The notes beneath the pieces are model-generated. The model was not told the DNA's origin. It did not search any database and saw only the letters and a program-made list of their open reading frames with translations. Shown here in pieces: positions 3,315-60,347 of a stretch of DNA of 64,000 nt (position 1 is the first letter of the stretch; every line of letters begins with the position of its first letter). This stretch comes from Candidatus Woesearchaeota archaeon (GTDB lineage: Archaea > Nanobdellota > Nanobdellia > Woesearchaeales > GW2011-AR9): assembly GCA_018302605.1 (NCBI GenBank), contig JAGVZN010000021.1, positions 14,157-78,156 on the forward strand. Reading direction: 5' to 3'. Both the position numbers and the translations under genes were made by a program.

Positions 3315-3350
3315 AAGTCTGATAAGAAGAACGAGGCTTATAAATTATTC

Positions 3351-3402
3351 GGCAGACAGGGCGGACAGTAACCGAGCAACGCGAGATGGTTTCATATTAG
3401 CC
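3351..3402. repeat. solo terminal arm of repeat family 1
   Basis: cagtaaccgagcaacgcgagatggtttcatattagcc matches the reverse complement of 5661-5700 (ggctaatatgaaaccctctcgcgttgcttggttactgcc). Confidence 0.7.
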
Positions 3403-3464
3403 CTCCACCACCAAAAACTTTAATAACCAGCAAGGCCATTCGCGAACAGAGAGGGGAAACATTC

Positions 3465-4097
3465 ATGGTGAAAACATTTTTTCGGAGATTTTTCAGAAGA
3501 GTCAATCCGTTCAGCAAACGCAGCAACATGAAAGTCGGGCTGTACGGACCACCCAACGGGGGCAAGTCCACTTTGGCCAACCGCATCTGCCTGGACTGGC
3601 TGGGAGAAGAGATGTCCAGCGTTTCCCATATCTCTCACGAAACCCGGGAGATCAAGATCAAAGAACAAGTCACGATCAAAAACAAGAAAGGCAAGGAATT
3701 GATGTTCTCGCTGGTTGATACACCGGGGATTGCCACCCGGATCGATTATGAAGAATTTCTGCGCAAGGGAATTAAGAAGACCGAGGCGAAGAAACGGGCA
3801 AAGGAAGCGACAAAAGGAGTCATTGATGCCATTAAATGGCTGGATAACATGGACTTCGTTGTTGTCGTCCTGGACGCGACCAAAGATCCTTACTCCCAGG
3901 TCAATATCACGATCATTGGAAATCTGCAGGCACGGAACATCCCAGTCCTGATTGCGGCCAATAAGATCGATTTGAACAAAGCCAACATGGATGCGATCAA
4001 AGCGGCCTTTCCCCAATACGGGATCGTCGGCATTTCCGCCAAGTACGGCAAGAATATCGAAGATTTCTACGAAAATCTCTTTAAACTGGTGAAATGA
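3465..4097 (+). CDS. small GTP-binding protein (archaeal predicted GTPase)
   Basis: P-loop GPPNGGKST, switch DTPGI, NKID G4 motif; alternative start at 3528 (MKVGLYG). Confidence 0.7.
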   Translation: MVKTFFRRFFRRVNPFSKRSNMKVGLYGPPNGGKSTLANRICLDWLGEEMSSVSHISHETREIKIKEQVTIKNKKGKELMFSLVDTPGIATRIDYEEFLRKGIKKTEAKKRAKEATKGVIDAIKWLDNMDFVVVVLDATKDPYSQVNITIIGNLQARNIPVLIAANKIDLNKANMDAIKAAFPQYGIVGISAKYGKNIEDFYENLFKLVK

Positions 4098-4236: not shown

Positions 4237-4644
4237 ATGGTCACATTTCAGTTTGTTCCTTATCAAGACATTGAAACACTCACTTCTGCCAAACGGATCA
4301 ACAAGTTAATGAACATCGTCAAGAGTGATCGGATCGTGATCATGGAAGGGCGCCTGCGCAAAGAGGAAGAAGCCGATCTGATCGAGATCACGATGGAAGA
4401 GATCGGCTCCCGCTTTCGGGGGATCGAGTTGAGCGTGATTTATCCCGATAAGACAAAATTAGATGCGTTGCAAAAATTACGGGGCATGTTCGCCAGCTTT
4501 CTGCTCGGCAATCGGCAGGGATTGACGATCATCGGGCCGGCATCGATCGTCAAGCGGATTGAGAAAGATCCCGATAAGATCGAGCTGTTTACCAAAGATA
4601 CAGTTAATTTACCCCGCAACCGCAGTAAGCGAAAGAATAAATAG
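4237..4644 (+). CDS. conserved archaeal protein (DUF2073-like), GTPase operon partner
   Basis: 135 aa, co-directional in the GTPase / Zn-ribbon triad; family assignment is from memory of the conserved archaeal neighbourhood, not a search. Confidence 0.45.
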   Translation: MVTFQFVPYQDIETLTSAKRINKLMNIVKSDRIVIMEGRLRKEEEADLIEITMEEIGSRFRGIELSVIYPDKTKLDALQKLRGMFASFLLGNRQGLTIIGPASIVKRIEKDPDKIELFTKDTVNLPRNRSKRKNK

Positions 4645-4659
4645 GAGTACTTCTTCTCA

Positions 4660-5049
4660 GTGGACATGCCACACCAATGCGTCCGCTGCAGCACGCTGTT
4701 CCCTGACGGAGCACAGGAGATTCTCAAAGGCTGCCAATGCGGCGCGCGGCTGTTCTTTTACATCAAGAAGAAACAGATTGAAGAAGGCAAGGAACTGATC
4801 AGCAATCTTTCCGTTGAAGAGAAAAAACAGATTGAAACAGACATCGCCGAGATCATGTCTATCAAGGAAGAAGATCCTGATCGGCCGGTTGTGCTGGACA
4901 TCGAAGCAATCCGCGTCTTGCAGCCGGGAAAATATGAATTGGATCTGGTGCACCTATTTAAGAAAGACCCTTTGATTATCAAGTTGGAAGAGGGGAAGTA
5001 CATGATCGATCTGGGGCAGTTGTTTAAAGAGAAGTTTGAAGACAAATAA
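4660..5049 (+). CDS. Zn-ribbon protein (DUF2072-like)
   Basis: N-terminal HQCVRC-x13-CQCG four-Cys ribbon followed by an acidic coiled region. Confidence 0.5.
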   Translation: MDMPHQCVRCSTLFPDGAQEILKGCQCGARLFFYIKKKQIEEGKELISNLSVEEKKQIETDIAEIMSIKEEDPDRPVVLDIEAIRVLQPGKYELDLVHLFKKDPLIIKLEEGKYMIDLGQLFKEKFEDK

Positions 5050-5660: not shown

Positions 5661-5824
5661 GGCTAATATGAAACCCTCTCGCGTTGCTTGGTTACTGCCA
5701 GCTCCGCACTTGCTGTAGAACACAATCAGCGACGTTCCCCGTAGGGGGCAACCCCCTTGTCGCTTTGATATTTCTATCGAGAATGCTCCGCAAAGGGCAG
5801 TAACTACAGGGTTTCATATTAGCC
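5661..5824. mobile_element. MITE-like element, repeat family 1 (164 bp)
   Basis: 17-bp perfect TIR ggctaatatgaaaccct / agggtttcatattagcc; flanked by gtgggaaaa / gtggaaaat (putative TSD); GC-rich internal hairpins (ccccgtagggggcaaccccc). Confidence 0.6.
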
Positions 5825-5941
5825 GTGGAAAATATACTACCTGCTTCTTAACGTGTCGTGTCTTCTAGATGTTAAGAGAAGTTTGAATAATTCAATTATT
5901 GATCTCCAAACTTCTCTTAAAGAACAGAAATATTCATAAAC

Positions 5942-6636: not shown

Positions 6637-6839
6637 GCACCGGTGGTATAATGGCTAGTATCTCAGCCTTCCATATTGACCCGCAATGGTTGATAAAGGC
6701 GGACCGCCTTTATGATGAAAGCTGATGATCCGGGTTCGAACAGATGTCACGCCATCTGAAAGGCGAAGCGACTTCGTTTGTGCTCAGCCGCGATCACTCA
6801 AAAGATTGCTGTGCATCTCAGAAAGTCCCGGCCGGTGCA
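6637..6839 (+). tRNA. tRNA-Gly(TCC) with two introns (canonical 37/38, 46 nt; T-loop 59/60, 85 nt)
   Basis: Acceptor GCACCGG / CCGGTGC + A73; D-arm GTAT-AATGGCTA-GTAT; anticodon stem TCAGC / GCTGA with loop CTTCCA(A); T-arm CCGGG-TTCGAA[intron]T-CCCGG. Confidence 0.7.
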
Positions 6840-11387: not shown

Positions 11388-12710
11388 TTATTCACGTCTA
11401 AACTCTTTAAACTTCTCCCCAAATACCTGCAACCCCGATGTCGATAACATCGCTTGACTATTACCAAACTGAACCATTGTCGGCTGTGGCAAGCCCTGTG
11501 CTAACTGTTGTAATGCCTGTTCCATCTGAGTAACCCTTGATAATAACTCCCTTTCTCTCTCTTGTGCTCTTTCGTCTATTCGAATTCCTGCTTCTAATGT
11601 AAGCGGAGACTTACATCTATCACAAAAGATGAGGATACTTTGATTTTGAAAATTACACCGTGGACAAATGCGAGGTTTTAATACATCCTCTTTTTCAGTA
11701 GTTTTCGGTTTAATTCCCTCTACTTCACAGTAAGCATCATCGATGTCCTTATCGCTGAGCTGGAGATAAACGCCCTCTAATGTTCTCGTTGTAATGCCAT
11801 GCCTTTTGGCATTCTTGACCAAATCAAAGCCCCTCCTTTGAAGATCCGTAATCGCAAAGTATCTTCCCATATGCCAGAAGAGATTTTTCTTGATTTCTGC
11901 ACGTTCCGCAATTCTTCGAATAAAAGCAGTATAGCCAATGGGTGACAGTTTCCTTGCAAACCAGCCGCCTTGTTCTTTACCAACAAATAAGGGTGCATCT
12001 CCATTCTTCCTGTCGGGATGATCTTTGTTAATCCACTCGCGTAAATACGGTACAGCTCGAACTAACCGAACAGAGCGTCGCTGAGATTTTGATACTTCAA
12101 TCCACACTTTACAGCCCATTTCGTCAAATTCAACATCGCTAAGCTTAACATTTGCAATCTCGTTAGCTCTACAACCCATTTCCACCCAGACCATAATCAA
12201 TGCTCGATCTCGATTACAGGAACAAATAGTAAGCATTCGCTCGATATCCTCAATAGTTGGCAAATCTGATGGCTTATGAGTTCCTTTAATCCTCTCCGGC
12301 TTTAATCGTTCATCTTCTACAACTGCCGGAAAGCCAGAACGCTCTTTAAATTGGTACAACCACTTGTAAAAAGATCGAATTATCACTTTTTTCACAGAGC
12401 GTGAAGAATCTGTTCTCACGTTACCAACAAATTCAATGATTTTCTGCTTATAAGCCTCAATCTCGGTATCGATGGGTTTAAACGGCATCTTGAGGGATAA
12501 GCCAAGTTCTCGGAGGCACAAGAGGGTATTGCGAATGGTCGAGGTTTTTATCCTACCACCGCGACTACTTGGCTTGTTTTCCAAGTACTCTTTAAAGAGG
12601 TTAAGTGCTTCCAACTGTTCCACAGAGAGTTTACCCCTCCATTTCGAGTTATGATGACCTTCGTCGAAGCCATTGGTCAAAATCTTCCTAATTTCTTCTT
12701 CTGAACCCAT
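11388..12710 (-). CDS. tyrosine recombinase / integrase with C-terminal zinc ribbon
   Basis: Catalytic region HMGRYFAITDLQRRG-x18-Y; arm-binding and core-binding regions; C-terminal CPRC-x13-CDRC ribbon and a coiled coil not present in archaeal XerA. Confidence 0.8.
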   Translation of the reverse strand: MGSEEEIRKILTNGFDEGHHNSKWRGKLSVEQLEALNLFKEYLENKPSSRGGRIKTSTIRNTLLCLRELGLSLKMPFKPIDTEIEAYKQKIIEFVGNVRTDSSRSVKKVIIRSFYKWLYQFKERSGFPAVVEDERLKPERIKGTHKPSDLPTIEDIERMLTICSCNRDRALIMVWVEMGCRANEIANVKLSDVEFDEMGCKVWIEVSKSQRRSVRLVRAVPYLREWINKDHPDRKNGDAPLFVGKEQGGWFARKLSPIGYTAFIRRIAERAEIKKNLFWHMGRYFAITDLQRRGFDLVKNAKRHGITTRTLEGVYLQLSDKDIDDAYCEVEGIKPKTTEKEDVLKPRICPRCNFQNQSILIFCDRCKSPLTLEAGIRIDERAQERERELLSRVTQMEQALQQLAQGLPQPTMVQFGNSQAMLSTSGLQVFGEKFKEFRRE

Positions 12711-17695: not shown

Positions 17696-18724
17696 ATGAA
17701 CTACATCATCAAACATCTCCCCGAAGATTTCATCGTCAAAGAGATCAGTCGCATCACTCCGCAGAAACAAGGCAGATACTGCTATGTCCTCCTGCGCAAA
17801 AGACAGCGGAATACGCTGGATGTGGTGCAGGAGATAGCCAGACAATTACACACTAAAGAAAAACAGATCGGCTTTGCTGGAAGCAAAGATCGGCAGGGAA
17901 TAACGGAACAGGTGATTTCCCTGGCTGGAACGGGAAAAGACAAGATCGCTGCGCTGAACCTGCGTAATGCCGAATGTGTCATCCTCGGCTATGGGAATAC
18001 GCCAATTACTTTGGGTGATCTGCAGGGAAATGCTTTTGAGATCGTCGTCCGTGATCTTCAAGAAGACATGGAGAAAGAGAATTTGGGCTTTTCCCCGTTT
18101 CTGGAAAACTATTTTGATGAACAGCGCTTTTCAACGCAGAATGTAGCGGTGGGGAAAGCCTTGATCCAAAAAGATTTTGCCGGAGCGGTACGATTGATCT
18201 CCAACACGGTCGGCCTTGCCCATCTCGACGACCATCCTGCTGATTTTGTCGGGGCATTGAAAAAAGTTCCTAGCCGCTTATTGCGGATGTACGTTCATGC
18301 GTTGCAAAGTGCGTTATGGAATCGGACGGCTGCTGCCTATTTGCAGCGGAAAGGCATACTGGAAAAGAGTATTGATTATTCGCAGGGAAAATTAGTGTTC
18401 GTGAAAGATACGCAAAGACTTTTGGGGATAAACATTCCGTTGGTTGGCTTTGGTGAACTGCCAACGGACGATGATGAAATCAAAGAGATTATCACCAGAT
18501 TATTGACTGAAGAAAAAATAGAGCAAAATAATTTTGTGATCAAACAAATTCCGGAATTGACTGTTGAAGGAGAGCTGCGTCAGTTGATCGTGCCAATAGG
18601 GAATATTGAAATCGGCAGCATCGAAGACGACGAAATATTTTTCGGGAAGAAAAAAATGAAAGTCTGCTTCACTTTGCCTAAGGGCAGTTACGCGACGATG
18701 GTTGTCAAGAAGTGGTTTGGGTAA
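17696..18724 (+). CDS. truD: tRNA pseudouridine synthase TruD/Pus7
   Basis: 342 aa; catalytic GSKDRQGIT (G-x-KD) motif typical of the TruD family. Confidence 0.65.
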   Translation: MNYIIKHLPEDFIVKEISRITPQKQGRYCYVLLRKRQRNTLDVVQEIARQLHTKEKQIGFAGSKDRQGITEQVISLAGTGKDKIAALNLRNAECVILGYGNTPITLGDLQGNAFEIVVRDLQEDMEKENLGFSPFLENYFDEQRFSTQNVAVGKALIQKDFAGAVRLISNTVGLAHLDDHPADFVGALKKVPSRLLRMYVHALQSALWNRTAAAYLQRKGILEKSIDYSQGKLVFVKDTQRLLGINIPLVGFGELPTDDDEIKEIITRLLTEEKIEQNNFVIKQIPELTVEGELRQLIVPIGNIEIGSIEDDEIFFGKKKMKVCFTLPKGSYATMVVKKWFG

Positions 18725-20581: not shown

Positions 20582-20691
20582 TGAGCCTGCCCGGATTCGA
20601 ACCGGGGTCCTATGGTCACTTCTGCCGAAGCAGCCGAAGCCATATGTCCTATTTGCCTTATTTGCTCCTATCCAGGCTAGACTACAGGCCC
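20582..20691 (-). tRNA. tRNA-Arg(TCG) with two introns (D-arm about 19 nt; canonical 17 nt UUCG hairpin)
   Basis: Minus strand GGGCCTG-TA-GTCT-AGCCTGGATA[intron]GGAC-A-TATGG-CTTCGG[CTGCTTCGGCAGAAGTG]A-CCATA-GGAC-CCCGG-TTCGAAT-CCGGG-CAGGCTC-A; A20 and G37 fit Arg / CGN decoding. Confidence 0.6.
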
Positions 20692-20844: not shown

Positions 20845-21372
20845 GTGATGTTAATGAATGAAAAAATTCTGATAAACCAATCAGTCGCCATTCTCTGTGA
20901 TGGCAACAATATTGAAAGAAGCATCCATGAACAAAGCGGCACGTCCACGGCGATGGTCAATTTTAACACGATCATCCCCAAACTGCTCAATGGAAGAGGA
21001 TTGAATCGGTTGATTTACTTTCGGGAAGGACAGAATATCTCCTCCAAGCTGGCAGAGAGGCTGCATGAGCAGTATTATGGTTCGGTTGTTCCCTGCCATA
21101 AATCGGCGGATATCCCCCTCTCAATCAAAGCCACCCAGCTTGCTTCTAAAGTGGACACGATCATCATCATGTCCGGCGATTCTGACTATGTCGAGCTGGT
21201 GACGCACCTGAAGTCGGAAGGTGTGCGGGTAGAGATTGCTGCGATTAGAGAGACGACGGCGAAAATCCTGATCGAGGAAGCAGATTTTTTCCATCCGATT
21301 ACGAAAGAGGATTGGTTTGTCTATACGCCGCCGAGACATACGGGTGGGAGAAGAAGAGAAGTGAAAGAATGA
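20845..21372 (+). CDS. NYN (LabA-like) domain protein
   Basis: AILCDGNNI and IIIMSGDSDYVELV motifs of the NYN/LabA nuclease-like fold. Confidence 0.7.
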   Translation: MMLMNEKILINQSVAILCDGNNIERSIHEQSGTSTAMVNFNTIIPKLLNGRGLNRLIYFREGQNISSKLAERLHEQYYGSVVPCHKSADIPLSIKATQLASKVDTIIIMSGDSDYVELVTHLKSEGVRVEIAAIRETTAKILIEEADFFHPITKEDWFVYTPPRHTGGRRREVKE

Positions 21373-21647: not shown

Positions 21648-21719
21648 TTTCAAACAGAAACATTTAAAAATAACAACCATTTCTCATTACCCACAAGAAG
21701 AGGAGTAAATCTTTCTCGG

Positions 21720-22361
21720 GTGTGTTTCATGGAAGAACAATTAAAGACAGGGACAACAACGGTGGGCATTGCCTGCAAAGATGGTGTGGTGTTAGCCGCG
21801 GATACTCGTGCAACAGCGGGAACGATGATTGTGGATAAGCAGGCAGAAAAGGTGCATATCCTTTCTGATGATTTCGCCTGTACGATTGCGGGCAGCGTCT
21901 CCGAAGCTCAATTACTGATCAAGTTGGTCAAAGCGGAACTAAAACTGAAAGAAGTCCGCACCAACAAAAGCGCTTCCGTCAAAGAAGCGGCAAATCTCCT
22001 CGGGGGGCTACTTTATAGCAGCCTGCGGCGGATGAGTATGTTTCCCTGCATTGCGCATTTCCTCCTTGGTGGAAAAGACGCATCGGGGGTTTATCTTTAT
22101 GATCTCTTTCCGGACGGCAGCGTCACGAAAATAAAAGATTTTGTTTCCTCCGGTTCCGGTTCAGTCTTCGCCTATGGCGTCTTGGAGACGCAGTATAAAG
22201 AAGGCTTATCTGTCGAGGAAGGGATAAAGCTTGCCGTGAGATGTGTGAACACGGCGTTGCAGCGTGACAGCGCTTCCGGTAACGGTGTCACTGTCGTCGT
22301 GGTGACGGAACTGGGAATTAAAAAAGTACTCCAGAAAGAAGCATCGATTACTTTGTATTAA
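21720..22361 (+). CDS. psmB: proteasome subunit beta
   Basis: Propeptide then TTTVGIACKDGVVLAADTRATAG; Ntn-hydrolase fold. Confidence 0.9.
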   Translation: MCFMEEQLKTGTTTVGIACKDGVVLAADTRATAGTMIVDKQAEKVHILSDDFACTIAGSVSEAQLLIKLVKAELKLKEVRTNKSASVKEAANLLGGLLYSSLRRMSMFPCIAHFLLGGKDASGVYLYDLFPDGSVTKIKDFVSSGSGSVFAYGVLETQYKEGLSVEEGIKLAVRCVNTALQRDSASGNGVTVVVVTELGIKKVLQKEASITLY

Positions 22362-22546: not shown

Positions 22547-24436
22547 ATGACAGATATCTTAAAAGAAGTTGTAAAAATGTTGCCAGAAGGGAAAATTTCT
22601 GATGCCGGATTTGAAGGGGCGAACATCGTTTTGTATACGAAAGACAAAGATTATTTTTTTGATAACGGCGGGACAATTATCAATGCCGTAAAAGTCGTCA
22701 AAAAAAGGATCGAGCTCCGTCCGGATCCTTCTCTTTGTCTTGATCAGGAAGAAGCGGAAAAAGCCATCCGCAAGATCCTCCCGGATGATGCGGGGGTTCA
22801 AGAATGCATCTTTGATGCGCACCGTTCCCAGGTCATTATCCACGCCGACAAGCCAGGGATGGTCATCGGAAAGCAAGGCGAGGTTCTGCGAGAGATCGCC
22901 CATCAGACTTTTTGGGTTCCTTTCATCAAACGCATGCCGCCGATTCGTTCAAAGCTGATCGAAAGCATCCGCGCCGTCCTCTATGAGAATTCTGATTACC
23001 GGAAAAAGTTCTTAAACAAGACTGGCCACCGTATCTATGATGGCTGGTTGCGCGAAAAGAAACACGAATGGGTCCGTCTGTCTTGTCTCGGTGCGTCTCG
23101 TCAGGTTGGTCGCACCTGTTTCCTCTTGCAGACGCCAGAATCGCGGATCATCATTGATTGCGGCATAGATCCGGGAGAAGACGGTTCAGAAGCCTATCCT
23201 TTTCTGGATGCCCCCGAATTTAATATCAGCGAGATCGACGCTGTTGTTGTCACCCATTCTCACCTTGATCACTCCGCCCTGATCCCTTATCTCTTCAAGT
23301 TTGGCTATCGCGGACCGGTCTATTGTACTCTCCCTACGCGTGATGTCATGGCTCTTCTGCAATTAGATATGGTCAAGATCCAGCGTGCGGAGGGAAAAGA
23401 ACCTCTGTTTGGCACGGAGGAAATCCGCCAGATGGTTCTTCACACGATCGGTTTGGATTATGGAGAAGTGACGGATATCACCCCTGATGTGCGTCTGACA
23501 CTATACAATGCCGGCCACATCTTAGGAAGTTCCATCGTCCATTTTAATGTTGGCAATGGCCTGCATAATTTTGCATATACTGGCGATCTAAAATATGGCC
23601 GTACAAATGTCTTGGAGCCAGGGAATACACAGTTTCCTCGTATCGAGACGCTGATGATCGAATCAACGTACGGGGGGAAAGATAATGTCATGGCTGAGGA
23701 GGAAGCGGATAACTATATGGTCAAAGTCGTGGAAGAGACATTCAAAGCGGGCGGAAAAATCCTGATGCCAGTTCTGGGTTCCGGCCGTGCTCAGGAAGTG
23801 ATGGTCATCGTCGAACGGCTGATGCGGGAGAAGAGAATTCCCGATGCGCCCATCTACATTGACGGTATGCTTTGGGATATTACGGCCATCCATACTGCCT
23901 ACCCCGAATTTCTCAACCGAAATCTGCGCCAGCAAATGGTTCAGAATGAGAATAATCCTTTCCTCTCTCCCCTATTCAAGAAGATCGGTTCCAGAAAAGA
24001 ACGAGAGCAGGTCATCCTGGAAGAAGGGCCGTGTCTCATCCTTGCCACTTCGGGAATGTTAACTGGCGGCCCCTCTGTTGAATACCTCAAAGGGCTTTGC
24101 GAAGGAAGCAAGCACGCAATTATCTTCAGCTGTTATCAACCGCCGGGCAGTCTGGGTCATCGCATCCGGTCTGGTGAGAAAGAGATCATGCTGAAAGATG
24201 GCGGGAAATCCACGTTATATAAGATCAACATGAATGTACATAAGGTGGAGATCACGAACCATTCTGACCGCCGCCAGCTGATGAATTACATCCGGCGCTG
24301 CAACCCACAGCCGAAGAAAGTAATTGTTGTGCATGGCGAGAGCTCCCGCTGCCTTGATCTGGCTTCATCCATCCATAAAACATATAAGATCGAGACCGTA
24401 GCGCCGAAGAATCTGGAAGTGATCAGGATACGTTAA
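22547..24436 (+). CDS. aCPSF1 / FttA-type beta-CASP ribonuclease with N-terminal KH domains
   Basis: 629 aa; metallo-beta-lactamase HSHLDHS motif, beta-CASP and RMMBL regions, two KH modules at the N-terminus. Confidence 0.9.
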   Translation: MTDILKEVVKMLPEGKISDAGFEGANIVLYTKDKDYFFDNGGTIINAVKVVKKRIELRPDPSLCLDQEEAEKAIRKILPDDAGVQECIFDAHRSQVIIHADKPGMVIGKQGEVLREIAHQTFWVPFIKRMPPIRSKLIESIRAVLYENSDYRKKFLNKTGHRIYDGWLREKKHEWVRLSCLGASRQVGRTCFLLQTPESRIIIDCGIDPGEDGSEAYPFLDAPEFNISEIDAVVVTHSHLDHSALIPYLFKFGYRGPVYCTLPTRDVMALLQLDMVKIQRAEGKEPLFGTEEIRQMVLHTIGLDYGEVTDITPDVRLTLYNAGHILGSSIVHFNVGNGLHNFAYTGDLKYGRTNVLEPGNTQFPRIETLMIESTYGGKDNVMAEEEADNYMVKVVEETFKAGGKILMPVLGSGRAQEVMVIVERLMREKRIPDAPIYIDGMLWDITAIHTAYPEFLNRNLRQQMVQNENNPFLSPLFKKIGSRKEREQVILEEGPCLILATSGMLTGGPSVEYLKGLCEGSKHAIIFSCYQPPGSLGHRIRSGEKEIMLKDGGKSTLYKINMNVHKVEITNHSDRRQLMNYIRRCNPQPKKVIVVHGESSRCLDLASSIHKTYKIETVAPKNLEVIRIR

Positions 24437-28528: not shown

Positions 28529-28761
28529 TTTTTAGTGATAGAAAAAAAGCCCCACCCCGTCGATAATTAATTCTTTACATTTTAGTTTTACTTGTTATTG
28601 TAGAAGAGTAGGTGTCAGTGTTTAAAATTGTTAGTATTTCCGTTAAGGAATGATACATAATAGATGACAAAAATTTCACTGAACTGATATTACTTACTAC
28701 CGCTATTATAAATAGGTACGAAACCCATCTATTTCCAGTATGGTTTAAAAAAGCTAAACTT

Positions 28762-28772
28762 TTATAAAAAGG
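28762..28772 (+). promoter_or_regulatory. TATA box ttttataaaaa upstream of the tRNA-Ser region
   Basis: Sits about 25 nt upstream of the duplicated 5' tRNA fragment at 28797, not of the intact tRNA. Confidence 0.35.
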
Positions 28773-28855
28773 ATAACAAATAACTCGTCTAATGCCCAGC
28801 GTCGCATACGCAGAAAGTAGATTTTCTGGTTGCGCCGCAGGCTCTGCTTCGCTAC

Positions 28856-28968
28856 GCCAGCGTCGCATAATCCGGTATTGCGCAGGTCTTGAATCCGCAT
28901 TCTGATTTCAGAACGCAGCACATCAACCTGTCCCTCTGGGATTCCCGGTTCGAATCCGGGCGCTGGCG
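28856..28968 (+). tRNA. tRNA-Ser(TGA), class II, with 31-nt canonical intron
   Basis: GCCAGCG ... CGCTGGC + G73; 3-bp D-stem; anticodon stem CAGGT / ACCTG with loop CTTGAA[intron]A; 13-nt variable arm TCCCTCTGGGATT; T-arm CCCGG-TTCGAAT-CCGGG. Confidence 0.7.
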
Positions 28969-29004
28969 CTTTCTATTTTGCTTTTTAGCGCAAAAATGAA
29001 TGCA

Positions 29005-29385
29005 CTACTTTTTTCTCATCCGCTCACGAACCTGCTGATGTAATCCACGCGTCTTGGAAAGCGCCCTCCCCGCCTGTGTTTTAAATGCCTGATGATAAAA
29101 TTTATAGGAGAAATATTTTTTCACCGCTTCGGAATACTCATGCCCCACCCACCACACGCCGACGATGAGGGGAATCCAGCTGAGGAGATAGATAATCACC
29201 GATGTCCAGCGGAGATGAGAATCGTGATAATAGAAAATAAATGTGGCTTTTGTGATCGTACCCAGAATCAGGCTGATGACAATAAAAAAGATGCCCACAT
29301 AAAACTTGAATGAAAAATGAAATCCGGACATATGCCTATTAATTCTTCCAGTATAATAAATCTTTCTGCGGCAAGGCACAAGCAA
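29005..29385 (-). CDS. membrane protein
   Basis: 126 aa, 3 TM helices; start possibly at the internal MSGFHF. Confidence 0.4.
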   Translation of the reverse strand: MLVPCRRKIYYTGRINRHMSGFHFSFKFYVGIFFIVISLILGTITKATFIFYYHDSHLRWTSVIIYLLSWIPLIVGVWWVGHEYSEAVKKYFSYKFYHQAFKTQAGRALSKTRGLHQQVRERMRKK

Positions 29386-29417
29386 TCTTTAAATACCTTG
29401 CAAATATCTCTTCCGTC

Positions 29418-36651: not shown

Positions 36652-36770
36652 AGTTGGTCTGTCATTCGGGACCCGTTTCTCGTTCTCAGCAACTTGGAAT
36701 TTCTGAAATTGAATGGGCCCACCCGGATCTTGAATCACTTGCTCGAACCGGATATCCTCATTTCGCACTG
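36650..36770. repeat. tandem duplicate of the tRNA-Val 3' region plus about 75 nt of 3' flank
   Basis: Minus-strand ccggttcgag[caagtgattcaaga]tccgggtgggccca-ttcaatttcagaaattcc ... cgggtcccgaatga repeats 36771-36850 directly downstream of the intact tRNA; this copy has a 14-nt insertion in the T-loop. Confidence 0.7.
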
Positions 36771-36823
36771 CTCATTCGGGACCCGTTTCTCGTCCCTAGC
36801 TACTCGGAATTTCTGACAATGAA

Positions 36824-36978
36824 TGGGCCCACCCGGACTCGAACCGGGGATCAACTCGGTTTTTAATACGATTCTGTTGATGTTCAACAAAGCCGTGCAT
36901 GTAAACGAGTTGTCATATGCAGCGCAAGCTGCGACCAAAAAAGATCGCTTTTTTGCGTAGCCGCTAGACCATGGGCCC
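36824..36978 (-). tRNA. tRNA-Val(TAC) with two introns (D-arm about 42 nt; canonical about 40 nt)
   Basis: GGGCCCA-TG-GTCT-AGCGGCTA[intron]TGAC-A-ACTCG-TTTACA[intron]C-CGAGT-TGATC-CCCGG-TTCGAGT-CCGGG-TGGGCCC-A; TATA tttataaaag about 26 nt upstream. Confidence 0.65.
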
Positions 36979-39847: not shown

Positions 39848-42800
39848 ATGACACCAAAGACAAAACAAAATATTTCTAAGAATAGATTGTTCATTCTTGC
39901 CGCTAGTGTCTTGATTCTGGTGGTTCTTATCGGTATTCTTTATCCGCTGGTGAAAGAGAAAGGGGTGGTGGGTAAGGCGGTGGCGGTGCCAAAGACCGTT
40001 TCAATATCCGGTTGTAATGGACCTGGGGACGCAGGAAAAGTTATTTTTAACAAAAATGAGGGGACATCATTGTGCTTGGGATCTTATGATCAAGGTGTTT
40101 TTTGTCGGGCAGAAAATCTCGGTTTCATCCAAAATATCAATGGCCAGTTTGATGTGCGCTGTTCAATGCCTGGTGGTACGCTAGCTTGGCTGGAATGTAA
40201 CACGGATGGGGTTAAAAGCGGCAGCGGTGCAATCGTAGATGTTCAGGATGGAGCAGTCTATGGAACAGCCTCCCAAAGTAAAACGCTCTGCGCGCAAAAT
40301 GGCGGATATGAAAGCTGGTTTGTCTGTCCGCTGGGTTCAAAAGTGGGGAAAAGCGGCGGCGTTGATGATCAAGCAATGGTGCAGACGCCGAAAGGGGATT
40401 ATTGGTGTGATGATTTTAAACAAAAATGGAAGTTATGCGATGCCTCATTAAAAAATCAGGGTTTTAATGAGAAAGACGGAAAGACCGTGTTGTACTATTG
40501 CCAGGAGAAAGACGGGGAATTGAGATGGGATAAGTGCTCTTATACCACTCTTGGAAAAATTACCAATAACAAAATCAGATACTGTAACGGCGTCGAGTGG
40601 AAGAAATGTGATGCTTCCAGCGTTGGCGTAAATCCCACCTCAACGCTTTATTGTGCTGGTTCAGGTAATTGGCAAGAATGTCAAAAAGAAAATTCTTTCA
40701 GTTCCGACTATAAAGCATTATGTAAAAATAAAAACTGGGAAGTGCTTCCCGTTGTCGAAGTGCCGCCGGAAGGATACAGCTGGGAAAAAGCACCCACTCC
40801 GCAGTCGGCGGTGGGAGCCGGTAAGACCATCAGTAATCAATATTTTAATAATGTCAATGGAAAGATTGTTGTTGAAGAACCCACAAAATATTATTGTCCA
40901 ACAATTTCATTCTGTCCGGGAAAACCCTACAAGCTTGGCACCGACAGCACATTTCTTTGTTATAACGATGCCACTATTCTTTCAAAAACCGATTTATGCA
41001 CTCTTCAACAGAATGGGCAGGGGCTATGGCTGTCCTGCGCTCAAAATCTGCCTCAGCAGTATAAATTATACCACGAAAAATATCTCTGTGTGACCAAGAC
41101 CCTCCAAAACCAACCAACTTCGTTCTGGGAGAAATGCGATCAAGACAAAGTCTCCGGTGATAATAATGGATACTATTGCGACGGTACAAAATGGACAGAA
41201 TGCACCTCCGCTCTGGAAGGGATGGCCAGCGCGAATGATAATTATCTCTGCATCAATAAAAAATGGACCGGCGTTTTTGTTCTTAACAGCATGAGTATTT
41301 TTGAAACCAAAGTGATAAAAGGCGGGAAAGCGAAAAATATCAAAAAAGATCCTGCGGGTTCAGATCCTTTAGCCGATGTAACAACCCTCTGCGACACTGG
41401 CACGGAAAATGTCCAAGTCAAAGCGACGCTGTGTTTAGGCGCACCACAGACGCAGACATTAACTGTCTCTTCCATTGCTTTCTTGCAGGGGTCTAATCAG
41501 CCGCTGACCGTCAAAAATGATTTGCTCTACACCTATGACGAAGCCGAGCCGAAAACGGTGAGTGTGCATGCGATCATTCATCCCAAAGGCGCTTCCGTAA
41601 CACTTGCCGAGTCAGTTCTGGCCAATAATTTTGCCCATGGCCGCCGTCTGGCCGTGGAAGTAGATGGACAATATTACTTGCTTGTCCAATCTCTTGCCGG
41701 AAAGCTGGACTTAACTGCGCTGCAGTTGATCTCCCTGCCTTCGGAAGAGGCTGTTCCGGTAACCGCGCTGGCTTCAGATAAATACCAATTTGAAATCCAG
41801 GCGAAGAAAGTATTGACCTTAACCTATGACGGAACGAACGTGGTTATTGCCGTCGGAAAACCGACCGAAGCGTTGGCCGGACAGGTTACCCAGCATACTC
41901 TGGCCGGCGAGTACGAAGTGTCGTTCTCCAAAGCAGAGCCGATATTACTGCAGGATTTTGGCGGTGTGAAATTAGTGCCCTGCCTCTCCGATAAGCCGGC
42001 CGATCCATTGACATTACAAGTATGCCTGACCGACGAATCACAACAGCCTTTCGTGACCTTACAGCGAGATGTGCTGACCGAAGCAGAATTGTTAGGTATT
42101 CCGGTAGCACTGCTTTACCAGTGGAATCTGGAAACAAACAGCAAGCAGGCTTCCATCTTTTATTTGAAACAATTAGATGGCTCGACTGCCGTCCAGCCGA
42201 CAGAATTGCTGTCTGAAGATTTTGTAGACAATCTGGTCAGTGATGGAAAGAGGATTGCCCTTTCCTTTGCCGGGAGCCTTTACTTGATGAGTCATGACGG
42301 AAATCTCTTATCCTTGCCGTGGATCAACTTGACTGCGTATACCGAAGGAAGCATCACCCTGTATAGTTCCGGTTCGCAAAGCGAAAAGACAGTAGACTTT
42401 TTAGTCGATGGTGGAATGATCTCGTTGGCGCGGGAATTTACTGCTCCGCCGCCGCCATTTACGCTTTCTGTGCAGACAAAACAAGAATTGCTGGCAAATC
42501 CATTGGATTTGACGAAAGAACTATCCGCCTCGTTCTCTTCGCAAGTGCCGGTGATGATCGTCAATCCCGTGAATTATGGCGTGCTTGGTCAGGATACAAT
42601 CAGCGCGAATCCGGATGTTCTGGGTTTCAAGCCGTTGTTTAAAGTGAAAGGCGACGTGTCCGGTCAGGCGCAATTGCCCTTGCCGTTCCAGAAGCCATTG
42701 ATCAACGGCAGGACGCTTCTGTATTATTATGGTGCTGAGCTCAAAGATGGGGGATTAGTCAAATCTGCCCGTGTGTTTCTGTTCCATAATCTGACGGACA

Positions 42801-43981
42801 AGGCTGTCGACAGCCAAGCATTTGATGATCAATTCCTGGATATCTTCCTGGGAAAAGGAAACGAGATCGCTTTGGGATTAGGCAATGGGTATTATCTGTT
42901 GAGTTACGCTGGCGCGACGCCGCAGCAAAAACCATCATTCTTTGAGTTTGAGCAGTTGAAGTTGACTTCATTAGACGGGACCCAGAAATTCACACCGCTG
43001 ATCGACGGATTACAAGCTTCTTTTACCGTTGCGCAAGGAACAATCAGCGTCGCCGTCGATCAAGCCGTCACGAAGATGACGTTTACCAAGAAAGGCGCAG
43101 CAGAGATTGCCCTGGAAGCGGTGACCGAATTATTTGATCCGGCTGTGGATTATAAGTATACCCTGGTCCCTGGAAAGATCGTGAATATCGCAGGGGATAC
43201 CTATGAGATCTGTGATAAAGGGACATTCATCAAAGTATTTGATCGCGTACAACTATGTAAGAATGGAAAATTCTACAAGACTGTAAAAAAGACAGATTTT
43301 CTGACAGAAGATGGTGTTTTGATTTATTTCAAATATGATTCTGAACTTAAGCAGAAATTGGTTATTCTGGAGAAATATGTTGATCTTTCACTTTCAAAAG
43401 CAGGCGCTGTTGTCACAAATGATAACTTCCTTGCGCTCTCTCCCGAAAAAATTGGCCTTGGCCTGAAATGGAATAACCAGTGGTACGAACTTGGTTCTAC
43501 TGAGTTTATTTCTCTCTCTAGTGAGGGGTATTGCACCGATGTTGTCAGCGCCTTTACAGTAGATATTGAATCTTTGAGTAGTACCGGTTATATTATCTGC
43601 ACTCAAAATGAAATTAAAAAAGACAAGACCGTTACTTCAACAACAAATCTATTGAAGGTAGAAAAAGAAATAATCGAGATGACGGGCGATGTTACCTACA
43701 CGCTCACGCCAACAACCTACAAATTAGCTTCATCTATCCCCGTGGAAGTGAAAACTACGGAGACGTTCCTTGAACCGGCAGGCGATACATCATTTGCTTA
43801 TGAAGTAAAAGTATCATCGGGGACTGTCTTGGCAGATGTTGTGCTTTCGGTAGACAAAAATGTCTTTTTCAAAGCGTCTCTGCCGGAAGGTGTTAGCAGA
43901 ACAGTTTTACTCCCCAACGGGAAAACGATTAAAGTTACAGTCGTCAATCTTCAGGAAAATATCGTCACGGTGTCAACATGA
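39848..43981 (+). CDS. giant Cys-rich surface protein (1377 aa)
   Basis: N-terminal TM anchor; first about 450 aa hold more than 40 Cys in repeated C-x-W/Y-x-C patterns; long beta-rich remainder. Confidence 0.6.
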   Translation: MTPKTKQNISKNRLFILAASVLILVVLIGILYPLVKEKGVVGKAVAVPKTVSISGCNGPGDAGKVIFNKNEGTSLCLGSYDQGVFCRAENLGFIQNINGQFDVRCSMPGGTLAWLECNTDGVKSGSGAIVDVQDGAVYGTASQSKTLCAQNGGYESWFVCPLGSKVGKSGGVDDQAMVQTPKGDYWCDDFKQKWKLCDASLKNQGFNEKDGKTVLYYCQEKDGELRWDKCSYTTLGKITNNKIRYCNGVEWKKCDASSVGVNPTSTLYCAGSGNWQECQKENSFSSDYKALCKNKNWEVLPVVEVPPEGYSWEKAPTPQSAVGAGKTISNQYFNNVNGKIVVEEPTKYYCPTISFCPGKPYKLGTDSTFLCYNDATILSKTDLCTLQQNGQGLWLSCAQNLPQQYKLYHEKYLCVTKTLQNQPTSFWEKCDQDKVSGDNNGYYCDGTKWTECTSALEGMASANDNYLCINKKWTGVFVLNSMSIFETKVIKGGKAKNIKKDPAGSDPLADVTTLCDTGTENVQVKATLCLGAPQTQTLTVSSIAFLQGSNQPLTVKNDLLYTYDEAEPKTVSVHAIIHPKGASVTLAESVLANNFAHGRRLAVEVDGQYYLLVQSLAGKLDLTALQLISLPSEEAVPVTALASDKYQFEIQAKKVLTLTYDGTNVVIAVGKPTEALAGQVTQHTLAGEYEVSFSKAEPILLQDFGGVKLVPCLSDKPADPLTLQVCLTDESQQPFVTLQRDVLTEAELLGIPVALLYQWNLETNSKQASIFYLKQLDGSTAVQPTELLSEDFVDNLVSDGKRIALSFAGSLYLMSHDGNLLSLPWINLTAYTEGSITLYSSGSQSEKTVDFLVDGGMISLAREFTAPPPPFTLSVQTKQELLANPLDLTKELSASFSSQVPVMIVNPVNYGVLGQDTISANPDVLGFKPLFKVKGDVSGQAQLPLPFQKPLINGRTLLYYYGAELKDGGLVKSARVFLFHNLTDKAVDSQAFDDQFLDIFLGKGNEIALGLGNGYYLLSYAGATPQQKPSFFEFEQLKLTSLDGTQKFTPLIDGLQASFTVAQGTISVAVDQAVTKMTFTKKGAAEIALEAVTELFDPAVDYKYTLVPGKIVNIAGDTYEICDKGTFIKVFDRVQLCKNGKFYKTVKKTDFLTEDGVLIYFKYDSELKQKLVILEKYVDLSLSKAGAVVTNDNFLALSPEKIGLGLKWNNQWYELGSTEFISLSSEGYCTDVVSAFTVDIESLSSTGYIICTQNEIKKDKTVTSTTNLLKVEKEIIEMTGDVTYTLTPTTYKLASSIPVEVKTTETFLEPAGDTSFAYEVKVSSGTVLADVVLSVDKNVFFKASLPEGVSRTVLLPNGKTIKVTVVNLQENIVTVST

Positions 43982-45378
43982 AACAGATAAACCGGCCAGC
44001 AGCAACAACGAGAAAACAGAATCATTCATCCGCTAAGAATTCTTCTTTTAAGAAGAGAAACTCTCCGCCGTCGAAAGGTCTTTCCGTCAGGCTAGCAACG
44101 GTGATTGGTATTTTGATCCTGATCGTTTTGGGCGGACTGTGGTATCAGTTTGCGTCCGTGGGGAAAGCGGTGGAAGCGCCCGTGCCGACTGCCATCAATC
44201 TTGATCTTCAGGCTTCAGAAGAGATCAATATTGAAAATGTTCCGACAATCAAAGTCAAGGCAACTCGTTCTGATGCTGAAGCGAGCGCAGAATATTCTTT
44301 GGATTTTACAGCCAATGAAGATGGGGGCATCAGTTATGTCCTAAAAGATTCAACCGGCGCCATTTTGGCGCAAGAGCTGTTGAATGACCTGTCTGGCGGG
44401 AATGAGATTTATCTCCCGGGTGATGAGCACGCTGATCTGTTGATCAGTTACGCCGCGCCTTATCTGAAAATAGCGAATCTTAATTTCGTCTCTCCGGAAG
44501 CAGTTGAGATCACCGTCTTGGATGCTGCGCAAAAAGTAGTCTCTTCGCCGTTCTTAGCCCTGACCGAGGGAAAAGCGCATTTTATCTTTAATGCAACGAG
44601 CAGCGCCGCACCGACATTGACGGCACTGTGGGCTGACGGCACGCCATTGGGAGAGAGTGTATTTGTGGTTACGCCACCAGAGGAAGGTGCTACATCAACC
44701 GAAGCAACACTAGATTGGAGTCAAGAACAGGATGGAGCTTATCCTTTTGTTGTTACGGGAGGAGTCGGCGATCAGCAGACAATCAAGAGATATGTTCTCA
44801 GCGTTGGCGGCATCTTATATACTCTCAGTGTGAATGATCTTCCTGCCGTCTCGGTCAAACAAGTCGATACGAATACGATTGATGTCACCTATGTTTTTGC
44901 CGAAACGACAGATCTCCAGCCATTTTCCCTGCCCTGCGGCAAACTAGAGCTTGTCGATGGAACGATTTCAGATGATCTCAAAGCGAAGATTGAGGTCATT
45001 TCCTCTTATTTCGGAGGAGTTAAGCAGTGGAAGAAGGATGTTCCCTCTAATTTCAAAGAACTGCAATCAAATAAAGGTTACTTTCTCCAACGCAAGACTG
45101 CGCAGGGAGAATTAAGTTTCACGGTGCAATGTACCTCGAGTAAGGGCATACTTCCTCCCGATTCCACCCCGTTATTTTCTCTTCCTTTGCTGAATAAAGG
45201 CTGGAATCTCATTGGGATCAGCGGTTATGAACCAGTCGCTGTCAAAAAATTAGAAGCCTCCATTCCGCCCTACACAAGTATCTCTGCTCTCTATTCTTTG
45301 ACCCTACAAGGGGCCGATACGATCACTCCCGTTAGCGAATTGGAACCAGGCAGAGCCTATTGGGTGATGGTACAATGA
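43978..45378 (+). CDS. surface/secreted protein
   Basis: N-terminal TM (VIGILILIVLGGLWY); overlaps the stop of the upstream gene (ATGA). Confidence 0.5.
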   Translation: MKQINRPAATTRKQNHSSAKNSSFKKRNSPPSKGLSVRLATVIGILILIVLGGLWYQFASVGKAVEAPVPTAINLDLQASEEINIENVPTIKVKATRSDAEASAEYSLDFTANEDGGISYVLKDSTGAILAQELLNDLSGGNEIYLPGDEHADLLISYAAPYLKIANLNFVSPEAVEITVLDAAQKVVSSPFLALTEGKAHFIFNATSSAAPTLTALWADGTPLGESVFVVTPPEEGATSTEATLDWSQEQDGAYPFVVTGGVGDQQTIKRYVLSVGGILYTLSVNDLPAVSVKQVDTNTIDVTYVFAETTDLQPFSLPCGKLELVDGTISDDLKAKIEVISSYFGGVKQWKKDVPSNFKELQSNKGYFLQRKTAQGELSFTVQCTSSKGILPPDSTPLFSLPLLNKGWNLIGISGYEPVAVKKLEASIPPYTSISALYSLTLQGADTITPVSELEPGRAYWVMVQ

Positions 45379-47516: not shown

Positions 47517-48185
47517 TTAAGTACTGCGGTTGTCTGGCACAATCCCCTCTCCTCTTTTGACCAAAAAAGTGACCAGGCTACTCCTTCGCTGAAATTCTTC
47601 TCTAGCCGTTGCTTCCCTACTTTTAAAATAAAAGAAACTGCCTTTTGCAGCTGCTCTCATTAACAGATGACAAGGTAAAACATTAAGCGCTTTTTGCGAT
47701 GGTCCTCTCAATGAATCTTCCCCGAATGGCAACTCCTCCATCTGGGCCGCTAAATCAGTAATCCTATATTCAAGATCCCCAATACAGCGCTGGATCAATG
47801 ATTTCCTGCTTTCTCCTAATTGCATCCTTGCCAGCGGCACCAGGTATCGGCCTTCCCCGCGCACGGATACCGTTGCGCTAATCGCATCGTAGCGAGAATC
47901 TAAAAAATTAGAGATATCCATGGGAGGGGTTCCGAGATAATTATCGCGAAATTGTTTTCCGTCTCCATAAAAAAATGCTTGTTCAGGGTCAAAAGTAAAA
48001 AGGCTTTGATCTTGATTTAAGCAGCCTGGGATGGTAATTCCATTAATATTGCTGGTCACCCTTCCACGCTGTTTTTCCCGAGCATAGAATCTGACGATCG
48101 TGTCTTGTAGATCATCCGTATCCCTAGGGATGGACACTAAAGTATAGACGATGCTGATGGTACTTCTAAATTGATGGCTAAACAT
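47517..48185 (-). CDS. hypothetical protein downstream of the ClpX-like ATPase
   Basis: 222 aa with no recognisable motif; 30 nt downstream of 48215-49771 on the same strand. Confidence 0.45.
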   Translation of the reverse strand: MFSHQFRSTISIVYTLVSIPRDTDDLQDTIVRFYAREKQRGRVTSNINGITIPGCLNQDQSLFTFDPEQAFFYGDGKQFRDNYLGTPPMDISNFLDSRYDAISATVSVRGEGRYLVPLARMQLGESRKSLIQRCIGDLEYRITDLAAQMEELPFGEDSLRGPSQKALNVLPCHLLMRAAAKGSFFYFKSREATAREEFQRRSSLVTFLVKRGEGIVPDNRST

Positions 48186-49817: not shown

Positions 49818-50603
49818 TCACAACTTCCTCGCAAACGTCAAAAAACCCGTATGTCCGAGCATCTCAAACTCCGGACGCATGATCCTATCTTCGATTTTCC
49901 ATTTCCGCTCCAATAATTCCATTGTTTCTAGAACATGAATCTTTGTTTTCTTGGTCGCTTCAATGAATTCTTTGACTTGGAGAAGACTGGGAAGATAGAC
50001 AACGAGCCAGCCGCCGGTCTTTAATGCTTTTTCAGCGTGTTCTAAAGCCAACCATGGTTCCGGCAGGTCAAATGTGACCAGATCAATATCTGTTTCTGTG
50101 ATTCCTTTGTAGACGTTCTCCTGCTTAAGAGTGATATTCGTGAATCCCACCATTTTGATATTTTTTTGCACGACATCATAATGCTCTGGATTTATCTCAT
50201 AGACAAAGATCTCTTTACAGACATTGGCGAGGGAGAGGCAAAGCGAGCCGCTGCCACCTCCGGCATCGACGATACGTGACTCTTTATTCACCCCGGTCTT
50301 TGCCAGGATCAGGCCGATATCTTTCTGGATCATGATCTGCGGACCGCGCTGGAAATGTGGATACAGATCGGAGAATGAAGGCTGTAAAGCTGTGAAAAGT
50401 TCTCCTTTATCACTTTTGATGGTCTCTTTGCTGCCTCGGAGGTCTGTTTTAGAAACAGTGCCGAAAGGAGTATGAAAATTATCGTCGAGGTCTTTGACGA
50501 GAAAGATTTTTTTGCTTTTACGATGCAGCAAGACTTTTTCGATATTTCTCATTAAGACCCCAAATAGCAGGAATATTTTTAAAATGTTCTCTCCAAATAG
50601 CAA
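49818..50603 (-). CDS. trmI: tRNA (m1A) methyltransferase TrmI/Gcd14
   Basis: SAM-binding VDAGGGSGSL and C-terminal GHTGFLTFARK motif. Confidence 0.65.
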   Translation of the reverse strand: MLFGENILKIFLLFGVLMRNIEKVLLHRKSKKIFLVKDLDDNFHTPFGTVSKTDLRGSKETIKSDKGELFTALQPSFSDLYPHFQRGPQIMIQKDIGLILAKTGVNKESRIVDAGGGSGSLCLSLANVCKEIFVYEINPEHYDVVQKNIKMVGFTNITLKQENVYKGITETDIDLVTFDLPEPWLALEHAEKALKTGGWLVVYLPSLLQVKEFIEATKKTKIHVLETMELLERKWKIEDRIMRPEFEMLGHTGFLTFARKL

Positions 50604-57564: not shown

Positions 57565-57571
57565 AAAATGA

Positions 57572-60202: not shown

Positions 60203-60347
60203 CTGGGAAATGTTAAATATTGTAGCTATATAAAGGTTTCTGAGGCGGTGAGGGAATAGCGGAAGGCCGTTTTGGGGCAAAAAACTTATTTTCCAAAAGA
60301 TTTATAAATGATTGCGGAAATTACTATTTAAACTTAACTCTTTGGTG

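Follow-up and report, generated by a model that had tools for sequence, protein, structure and literature searches.

Within a window of 64,000 nucleotides (nt) of contig JAGVZN010000021.1 from a Candidatus Woesearchaeota archaeon, we found exactly four detectable transfer RNA (tRNA) genes, all of them interrupted and together holding seven introns. As judged from the DNA sequence, the four genes, which belong to a Woesearchaeota-like DPANN archaeon, are very probably all functional, and their transcripts would carry seven protein-spliced introns of the bulge-helix-bulge (BHB) type. We searched for this motif as a helix (H) of 4 base pairs (bp) between two 3-nt bulges, each cut after its second nucleotide, plus an outer helix (h) and an inner helix (h'). 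Four of the seven introns lie at the canonical position 37/38 and three at non-canonical sites (59/60 in Gly, 19/20 in Arg and 20a/21 in Val); the Gly, Arg and Val genes thus have two introns each, one per gene outside 37/38. This amounts to 1.75 introns per tRNA gene in the window, with intron lengths of 17-85 nt. Each gene is a single contiguous and collinear unit of 110-203 nt, and none of the four encodes CCA. The genes and their introns are as follows.

6637..6839, plus strand: tRNA-Gly(UCC) gene; exons 6637-6673, 6720-6740 and 6826-6839, spliced to 72 nt and called Gly(tcc) by ARAGORN
6674..6719, plus strand: Gly intron 1, 46 nt, at 37/38
6741..6825, plus strand: Gly intron 2, 85 nt, in the T-loop at 59/60
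20582..20691, minus strand: tRNA-Arg(UCG) gene; exons 20691-20672, 20652-20634 and 20616-20582, spliced to 74 nt
20653..20671, minus strand: Arg intron 1, 19 nt, in the D-loop at 19/20, after G18G19
20617..20633, minus strand: Arg intron 2, 17 nt, at 37/38, with a textbook hBHBh' motif
28856..28968, plus strand: tRNA-Ser(UGA) gene; exons 28856-28893 and 28925-28968, spliced to 82 nt; class II, with a long variable arm and G73
28894..28924, plus strand: Ser intron, 31 nt, at 37/38, with a degenerate motif
36824..36978, minus strand: tRNA-Val(UAC) gene; exons 36978-36959, 36916-36900 and 36859-36824, spliced to 73 nt; called at 125% of the ARAGORN threshold
36917..36958, minus strand: Val intron 1, 42 nt, in the D-loop at 20a/21 (before A21)
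36860..36899, minus strand: Val intron 2, 40 nt, at 37/38

An original prediction, obtained by folding the sequence by hand, had warned that standard finders often miss such genes, and this could be demonstrated directly. ARAGORN in its default mode made no tRNA call in the whole 64-kb window, so that it recovered none of the four genes, and the Rfam tRNA model (RF00005) at its gathering threshold reported one of them, the Ser gene, with 43.6 bits. The Gly, Arg and Val loci gave no Rfam tRNA match even at E<=10. When one intron was allowed, ARAGORN flagged only the Arg, Ser and Val loci, and in this run Val was mis-modelled as 'Stop(tta)' and Arg was given a 23-nt intron at position 30. The Gly gene was invisible to all three runs (ARAGORN default, ARAGORN with a single intron and Rfam at the gathering threshold). 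Once the introns were removed, ARAGORN without introns recognised the spliced products as Gly(tcc), Arg(tcg), Ser(tga) and Val(tac), all with ordinary cloverleaves, and the four calls were kept at 115-125% of the default score thresholds, the Ser product being still called at 115%.

The intron boundaries were also recovered by a two-intron solver that considered all pairs of BHB-like segments. It returned exactly the proposed Gly, Arg and Val solutions, unique or best, at the top ARAGORN stringency: the Gly solution was the unique best and the Arg solution was unique, both at 120% of the threshold. A SPLITS-like scan, in which any BHB-like segment was deleted before running ARAGORN, found no loci beyond the four on either strand of the window, and the solver detected no further gene in any of the 28 intergenic gaps. 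The coordinates that had been predicted were correct, as were the identities, anticodons, and intron numbers and positions, for which the ARAGORN calls on the spliced products, the solver and the BHB registers agree; the 85 nt and the 59/60 site of the Gly T-loop intron held, and so did the 17-nt canonical Arg intron that forms a UUCG hairpin. The second introns of Arg and Val, which had been placed in the D-arm, are present, and their position is refined here to the D-loop and not the D-stem. Several weaker candidates were rejected. Low-threshold ARAGORN matches at 3861-4051, 47519-47791, 53926-54114 and 63509-63666 were below the default thresholds and were recovered by neither scan; weak Rfam matches (tmRNA-like at the Arg gene and 5.8S-like at 60337-60397) were judged partial or due to chance; and an ARAGORN model of the Gly-type gene as 'Ser(tga)' with an intron at position 35 was discarded, as the tRNA has no long variable arm and no BHB forms in that register.

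The motifs at the junctions are rarely met by chance. In the window, 0.41% of arbitrary pairs of site and length passed the BHB filter and 0.10% had a perfect H, and eight dinucleotide shuffles of the window yielded one spurious locus, versus the four real ones. A perfect 4-bp H with 3-nt bulges was present at four introns, both of Arg and both of Val. In Arg intron 1, H is GCCU/AGGC, the bulges are GG↓A and AA↓A (the arrow marks the cut or, in spliced products, the join), h has 4 bp and h' has 2 bp. Because AUAGGA is repeated at both of its ends, seven registers of this junction give the same product, AGCCUGG↓AUAGGAC, and the BHB was formed in one of the seven. In Arg intron 2, H is CUUC/GAAG, h has 5 bp and an h' of 3 bp closes the UUCG loop. 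In Val, the H of the D-loop intron is GCGG/CUGC, with bulges CU↓A and AU↓A and an h' of 5 bp, and its predicted spliced junction is AGCGGCU↓AUGACAA; the intron at 37/38 has UUUA/UAAA as H, CA↓U and AA↓C as bulges and an h of 7 bp.

Each of the two Gly introns has one mismatch in H. At 37/38, H is CUUC/GAUG with a single U.U mismatch, the bulges are CA↓U and AA↓A, and h is the anticodon stem. At 59/60, H is UUCG/AGAA with a G.A mismatch or, alternatively, a G:C pairing with one bulged A; h is the T-stem, the 3' bulge AG↓U is clean, and the predicted spliced junction reads GGGUUCGAA↓UCCCGG. The Ser intron has a degenerate, one-bulge relaxed form. Of the seven predicted junctions, which were to be checked by their BHB motifs, six thus allow such a motif, each in one register only, and the Ser intron lacks a proper one. 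Wherever short repeats made a junction ambiguous, a single register formed a BHB, and the BHB-constrained local folds lie about 0-6 kcal/mol from the unconstrained minimum free energy. Relaxed one-bulge HBh' motifs are known among archaeal tRNA introns, as are the sites 20/21, 53/54 and 59/60 (PMC4090602).

The host can be placed as an ultrasmall, Woesearchaeota-like DPANN archaeon from groundwater, which fits the expectation that introns of this kind are confined to particular archaeal lineages. The window encodes archaeal TFB, FttA/aCPSF1, LonB, proteasome, SMC/ScpA and S8e, and neighbouring proteins have hundreds of homologs in Woesearchaeota and Nanoarchaeota. An open reading frame (ORF) of 896 aa is 91% identical to one in a contig of a groundwater metagenome-assembled genome (MAG) labelled 'Candidatus Woesearchaeota archaeon', and over 22 kb this contig and the window are collinear, with a nucleotide identity of about 73-89%. 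For comparison we used about 1.1 Mb of related contigs (L numbers below), which were fetched through conserved neighbour genes.

The Gly gene has an ortholog in L027 whose exons are identical to those of the window at 72 of 72 positions. Its intron at 37/38 has 44 nt and is partly homologous to that of the window, and its T-loop intron occupies the same 59/60 site with 36 nt and a perfect H (UUCG/CGAA). At 59/60, L042 has an intron of 33 nt and L058 one of 13 nt. The 37/38 site holds 15 nt in L069 and 19 nt in L074 and is empty in L034 and L016, and in L069, L074 and L034 the T-loop UUCGAAU is unbroken and Rfam finds the gene with 51-68 bits. Indeed, Rfam missed every relative with a non-canonical intron, whereas relatives without them were readily found in this range of scores.

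For Arg, the ortholog in L027 (about 21650-21789, minus strand) is without the D-loop intron and reads AGCCUGGAUAGGAC, which is exactly the junction predicted from the window. It has a different, 19-nt intron at 37/38 with the same H as the window and, unlike the window gene, an intron of 22 nt at 53/54 (H = CUCC/GGAG). The exons of the two genes share 63 of 74 positions. The D-loop intron and the 53/54 intron appear in this way to be swapped between organisms whose SMC proteins are 79% identical.

The Val exons are identical at 73 of 73 positions to those in L005-L007, L008-L009 and L088. At the same D-loop site the orthologs have introns of 35-37 nt, versus 42 nt in the window, and h' differs by two fully compensatory changes (CGCAA/UUGCG versus CACGAG/CUCGUG). 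The intron at 37/38 has 27 nt in L005 and L008 and is absent in L088, where the loop reads UUUACAC as predicted. A Val gene in L008 (8443-8616, minus strand; identical in L009) contains three introns, of 36 nt in the D-loop, 27 nt at 37/38 and 38 nt in the T-loop at 59/60. In the more distant L077, tRNA-Val(UAC) has no D-loop intron and scores 58.8 bits with Rfam, and its D arm, GUCU-AGCGGUUA-UGAC, has the architecture predicted by the junction in the window.

Conservation of exons together with variation or absence of introns in orthologs thus holds for Gly, Arg and Val; no Ser ortholog was found. Site 59/60 is occupied repeatedly, in Gly, Val and Ala(CGC) genes. The comparison shows intron turnover on a short timescale: the Arg D-loop intron is exchanged for one at 53/54, Val has one, two or three introns, and the Gly T-loop intron has 13, 33, 36 or 85 nt or is absent. 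A BLAST search of the seven introns against the window and the related contigs gave no paralogous (transposed) introns, and only the orthologous Gly 37/38 intron of L027 was matched. Two tRNA-Ser(GCU) genes in the related contigs (L064, 13961-14186, and L067, 13961-14125, minus strand) also have two introns each, one at 37/38 and a second in the T-arm region (spliced index 71); the latter has 121 nt in one of these two contigs and 62 nt in the other.

Downstream of the Val gene there is an additional tRNA-like segment:

36714..36752, minus strand: truncated second tRNA-Val 3' part (T arm and acceptor 3' strand), with a 14-nt insertion at 59/60

It belongs to the second copy of a tandem direct repeat of about 110 nt that lies just 3' of tRNA-Val (36670-36837), and the Val trailer, including the hairpin GGGAC-GAGAAAC-GGGUCCC, recurs after it. 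A truncated Val 3' end is also present in L005 (9653-9700; also in L006 and L007), 98 nt downstream of the intact Val gene and with an 8-nt insertion at 59/60. We read the segment at 36714-36752 as a remnant outside the active Val gene; it may be a displaced ancestral 3' end, left by an att-like replacement or a partial duplication, that records the loss of a T-loop intron.

The exon/intron boundaries, the motifs and the pattern of conservation can be read off the window and its relatives, and several other explanations were weighed against them. The non-canonical inserts might be disruptions, in which case Gly, Arg and Val would be decaying pseudogenes and their functional copies would lie outside the window; the window shows 64 kb of the genome, so other copies are possible, and the Gly T-loop motif is imperfect. 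Pseudogenes, however, would gather changes in their exons, whereas relatives have Gly and Val exons 100% identical to those of the window, and the inserts, though evolving freely, keep their BHB pairing with compensatory changes and occupy the same sites in several lineages, and the spliced Gly, Arg and Val products score at 120-125% of the ARAGORN thresholds. Identical exons combined with fast-evolving, length-variable inserts that are gained and lost while keeping their pairing argue strongly against both pseudogenes and chance folding, and we regard decay as very improbable. Even less probable, to the point of being negligible, is that the extra introns are an artefact of hand folding, in which exon boundaries were set wrongly and only the 37/38 introns are real. 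ARAGORN with a single intron does report something at Arg and Val, but these calls are poor, as seen from the 'Stop(tta)' at Val. In the covariance-model search, by which the original prediction might have been overturned, a canonical intron alone could not explain Gly, Arg or Val, as these loci have no Rfam tRNA match and yet relatives without non-canonical introns are found easily. Intron-free orthologs define the same junctions, and together with these results and those of the solver we consider the artefact already refuted.

The Val remnant raises the question of a composite gene, in which 36714-36752 would serve as an alternative 3' exon and the first 3' end with its trailer as a giant intron or as a partner in trans-splicing. 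A second T arm and acceptor 3' strand about 110 nt downstream, followed by the same trailer and recurring in L005-L007, would suit such an arrangement. Yet with the first 3' end a perfect tRNA is already complete, no second copy of the 3' part exists in L008 and L009 or within the roughly 40 nt read downstream in L088, and the trailer, in its tandem repeat, resembles a duplication or an att-like remnant; a composite gene is accordingly hard to credit. Split or permuted tRNA genes need not be invoked, as no separate halves or reversed order are required and each gene is one collinear unit. Self-splicing group I and group II introns have a ribozyme core and are usually longer than 200 nt; the seven introns are all of 85 nt or less, and Rfam gave no match to either group at E<=10. 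Likewise, no C/D-box or other RNA was matched by Rfam within the 85-nt Gly intron, and no convincing C and D boxes were seen there by eye.

Four functional, protein-spliced genes remain the reading that we prefer, and the points that weigh against it are the following. Splicing itself, its enzymes and the order of its steps are taken from what is established for archaeal tRNA splicing. Neither EndA nor RtcB was found in the window, by Pfam in about 59 ORFs or by tblastn with the EndA of M. jannaschii (query matched to PDB 1A79), and the machinery is therefore assumed. The Gly T-loop motif requires the G.A mismatch or the extra bulged A. The remaining points concern Ser, where two of the four pairs of H are mismatched, the 3' cut falls in an internal loop outside any 3-nt bulge, and the 3' site is hidden within a helix in the fold of minimum free energy. 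In addition, a segment of about 890 nt that contains the Ser gene (28529-29417) is absent from the syntenic L088, L090 and L093, and no Ser ortholog was found by synteny, that is, among the neighbours of the AP-endonuclease-like gene in these three contigs.

The position of the Ser junction is nevertheless not in doubt, because the tRNA is clearly of class II with G73 and the removal is unique: in a hand enumeration, no other 31-nt removal yields a 7-nt loop, U33, the anticodon UGA and a purine at 37, and the predicted spliced junction is CUUGAA↓AACCUG. What may differ is the mode of processing. The Ser intron alone could be removed in another way, dependent on the mature domain at 37/38 as for bulge-helix-loop (BHL) substrates, or this copy could be recently acquired, poorly spliced or non-functional. 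The degenerate BHB, the masked 3' site and the absence of the segment in the three contigs would all agree with this, as would the upstream region, in which the A/T box is weak and there is no clear TATA box, unlike in Gly, Arg and Val, where an A/T box was read from the sequence at about -25 to -35. Moreover, BHL introns at 37/38 are within the reach of an alpha'2 EndA when the pre-tRNA is of full length (PMC6379350). On the other side, the exons form a good class II tRNA-Ser by both Rfam and ARAGORN, the cut sites are spaced as the BHB ruler requires, the 5' cut is placed in a clean bulge of 3 nt (AA↓U) between U:A and G:C pairs and the intron hairpin, and other archaea are known to have relaxed motifs with one bulge as substrates (PMC4090602). 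On balance, we consider a separate mode or a poor copy unlikely for Ser, though clearly less so than the alternatives discussed above. The Ser-bearing segment may be a local insertion. It also holds an ORF of 126 aa (29005-29385, minus strand) with no Pfam match, and a 13-nt copy of the 5' part of the Ser tRNA lies 60 nt upstream of the gene (28796-28808).

By analogy with other archaea, each of the four genes would have its own A/T-rich box upstream, from which it is transcribed. Within the precursor, the four exon nucleotides that directly precede a 5' splice site would pair with the 3' end of the intron and so build the 4-bp helix between two 3-nt bulges, while the tRNA itself would provide the outer helix, through its anticodon stem, its T-stem or a pairing that resembles the D-stem. 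EndA would then cut after the second nucleotide of each bulge and an RtcB-type ligase would join the exons; CCA would be added last, after splicing, because no gene encodes it. Cutting of both bulges by EndA, RtcB-type ligation and CCA addition are established for archaea (PMC4090602, PMC6379350). No gene for EndA or RtcB was found in the fetched related loci either. Four of the seven introns are strict BHB substrates that any type of EndA should cut. Just three introns, the two of Gly and above all that of Ser, would require a relaxed specificity, which is plausible on present analysis; the enzyme probably either accepts relaxed substrates or relies on the mature tRNA domain at the 37/38 sites.

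Of the distinct tRNA genes called with high confidence in the related contigs, six have no intron, seven have one, twelve have two and one has three. These 26 rows correspond to about 1.3 introns per gene in a biased sample, as many of the genes are orthologous to those of the window, lower-scoring single-intron Thr genes were left out, and the two-intron Phe(GAA) in L023 and L024 was probably counted twice. For comparison, the number of introns per tRNA gene given with tRNAscan-SE 2.0 is 0.21 across archaea and 0.84 on average in Thermoproteales (PMC8450103). We tentatively propose, while thinking it somewhat less probable than not holding, that Woesearchaeales have more than one intron per tRNA gene and hence a denser load than Thermoproteales, with fast gain and loss at hot spots (T-loop 59/60, D-loop and 53/54) even where neighbouring proteins are about 80% identical, and that the introns, including the relaxed ones, are processed by a homotetrameric alpha4-type EndA with only the DPANN 'L3' loop. 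If this were true, it would break the rule that limits relaxed and non-canonical introns to the (alpha-beta)2 and epsilon2 enzymes, and the tRNA complements of the clade, together with MAG quality based on tRNA counts, would be systematically underestimated.

Several further genes of the window are of note. A tyrosine recombinase with a Phage_integrase domain and a C-terminal zinc ribbon is encoded 4.5 kb from tRNA-Gly (11388-12710, minus strand), and no convincing att-like repeat of the tRNA was found. The OapB and OapC (origin-associated protein) genes are adjacent to each other at 4237-5049, and may mark the vicinity of a replication origin, which could fall, for instance, in the gaps 5724-5941 or 3315-3464. 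Directly beside tRNA-Arg there is an ORF with an RNase-like NYN domain (20845-21372), followed by FttA/aCPSF1 at 22547-24436. Three tRNA-modification genes encode a TruD/Pus7-type pseudouridine synthase (17696-18724), a GCD14/TrmI-type m1A58 methyltransferase (49818-50603) and TYW3 (50607-51161). The TruD/Pus7-type enzyme presumably acts on position 13 and the TrmI-type enzyme on the T-loop, next to the D-loop and T-loop intron sites, and the order of splicing and modification may be coupled. ORFs of 1377, 466, 545, 380 and 348 aa (39848-43981, 43978-45378, 54741-56378, 56422-58618) have no Pfam match and the 896-aa ORF (52054-54744) has a CARDB domain only; these may be cell-surface proteins typical of DPANN.

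The closest known parallel is found in the Thermoproteales of the Crenarchaeota (Pyrobaculum, Thermofilum, Caldivirga), which have up to three BHB introns per gene at the canonical position and at D-loop, T-arm and other sites, as here (PMC4090602). Both groups mix strict and relaxed motifs and gain and lose introns between relatives, and the Thermoproteales genes are likewise missed by standard finders (PMC8450103). The present organism differs from them in belonging to DPANN and not TACK, in being a mesophilic groundwater organism, and in having no transposed paralogous introns among the seven of the window. Intron density differs as well, at 1.75 per gene in the window and about 1.3 in the biased related sample versus 0.84 in Thermoproteales (PMC8450103), and the Thermoproteales enzyme is an (alpha-beta)2 EndA with a crenarchaeal loop. 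Within DPANN, ARMAN-2/Micrarchaeota were studied earlier and have an epsilon2 enzyme, while other lineages were reported to have alpha4 with the L3 loop. The split and permuted tRNA genes of Nanoarchaeum equitans, Caldivirga and Staphylothermus follow the same BHB-based processing logic, and the T-arm remnant downstream of Val superficially resembles the 3' half of a split gene; unlike those genes, all four described here are contiguous and collinear.

Multiple and non-canonical tRNA introns are thus already well known from Thermoproteales and ARMAN, and have been reported without detail for DPANN including Woesearchaeota. Kaneta et al. 2018 predicted tRNA genes for four DPANN genomes, among them Woesearchaeota RBG_13_36_6 and a Pacearchaeota genome, and their main text describes increased tRNA disruption in DPANN lineages and notes that the tRNA sets of some DPANN genomes cannot be fully predicted (PMC5829648). 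That account takes the form of a summary figure, with no gene-level description in its main text, whereas exact junctions, motifs and intron-free alleles are given here for one lineage. What is added is the gene-level detail for a Woesearchaeota lineage, the high local density of seven introns in four genes, and the clear turnover between close relatives.

The known picture of archaeal tRNA splicing is unchanged by these genes. As default finders see none or one of the four, and Rfam misses the relatives with non-canonical introns, the tRNA inventories of Woesearchaeota and DPANN are likely to be incomplete. Completeness and quality labels that count tRNAs are likely to be affected as well, a point also made in the main text of Kaneta et al. 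2018 (PMC5829648). The window, in turn, offers a compact set of substrates (four strict, two with one mismatch and one degenerate, with three non-canonical sites) for asking how broad the specificity of DPANN EndA is. The relevance of these findings lies mainly in the annotation of DPANN genomes and in the specificity of EndA within the clade.

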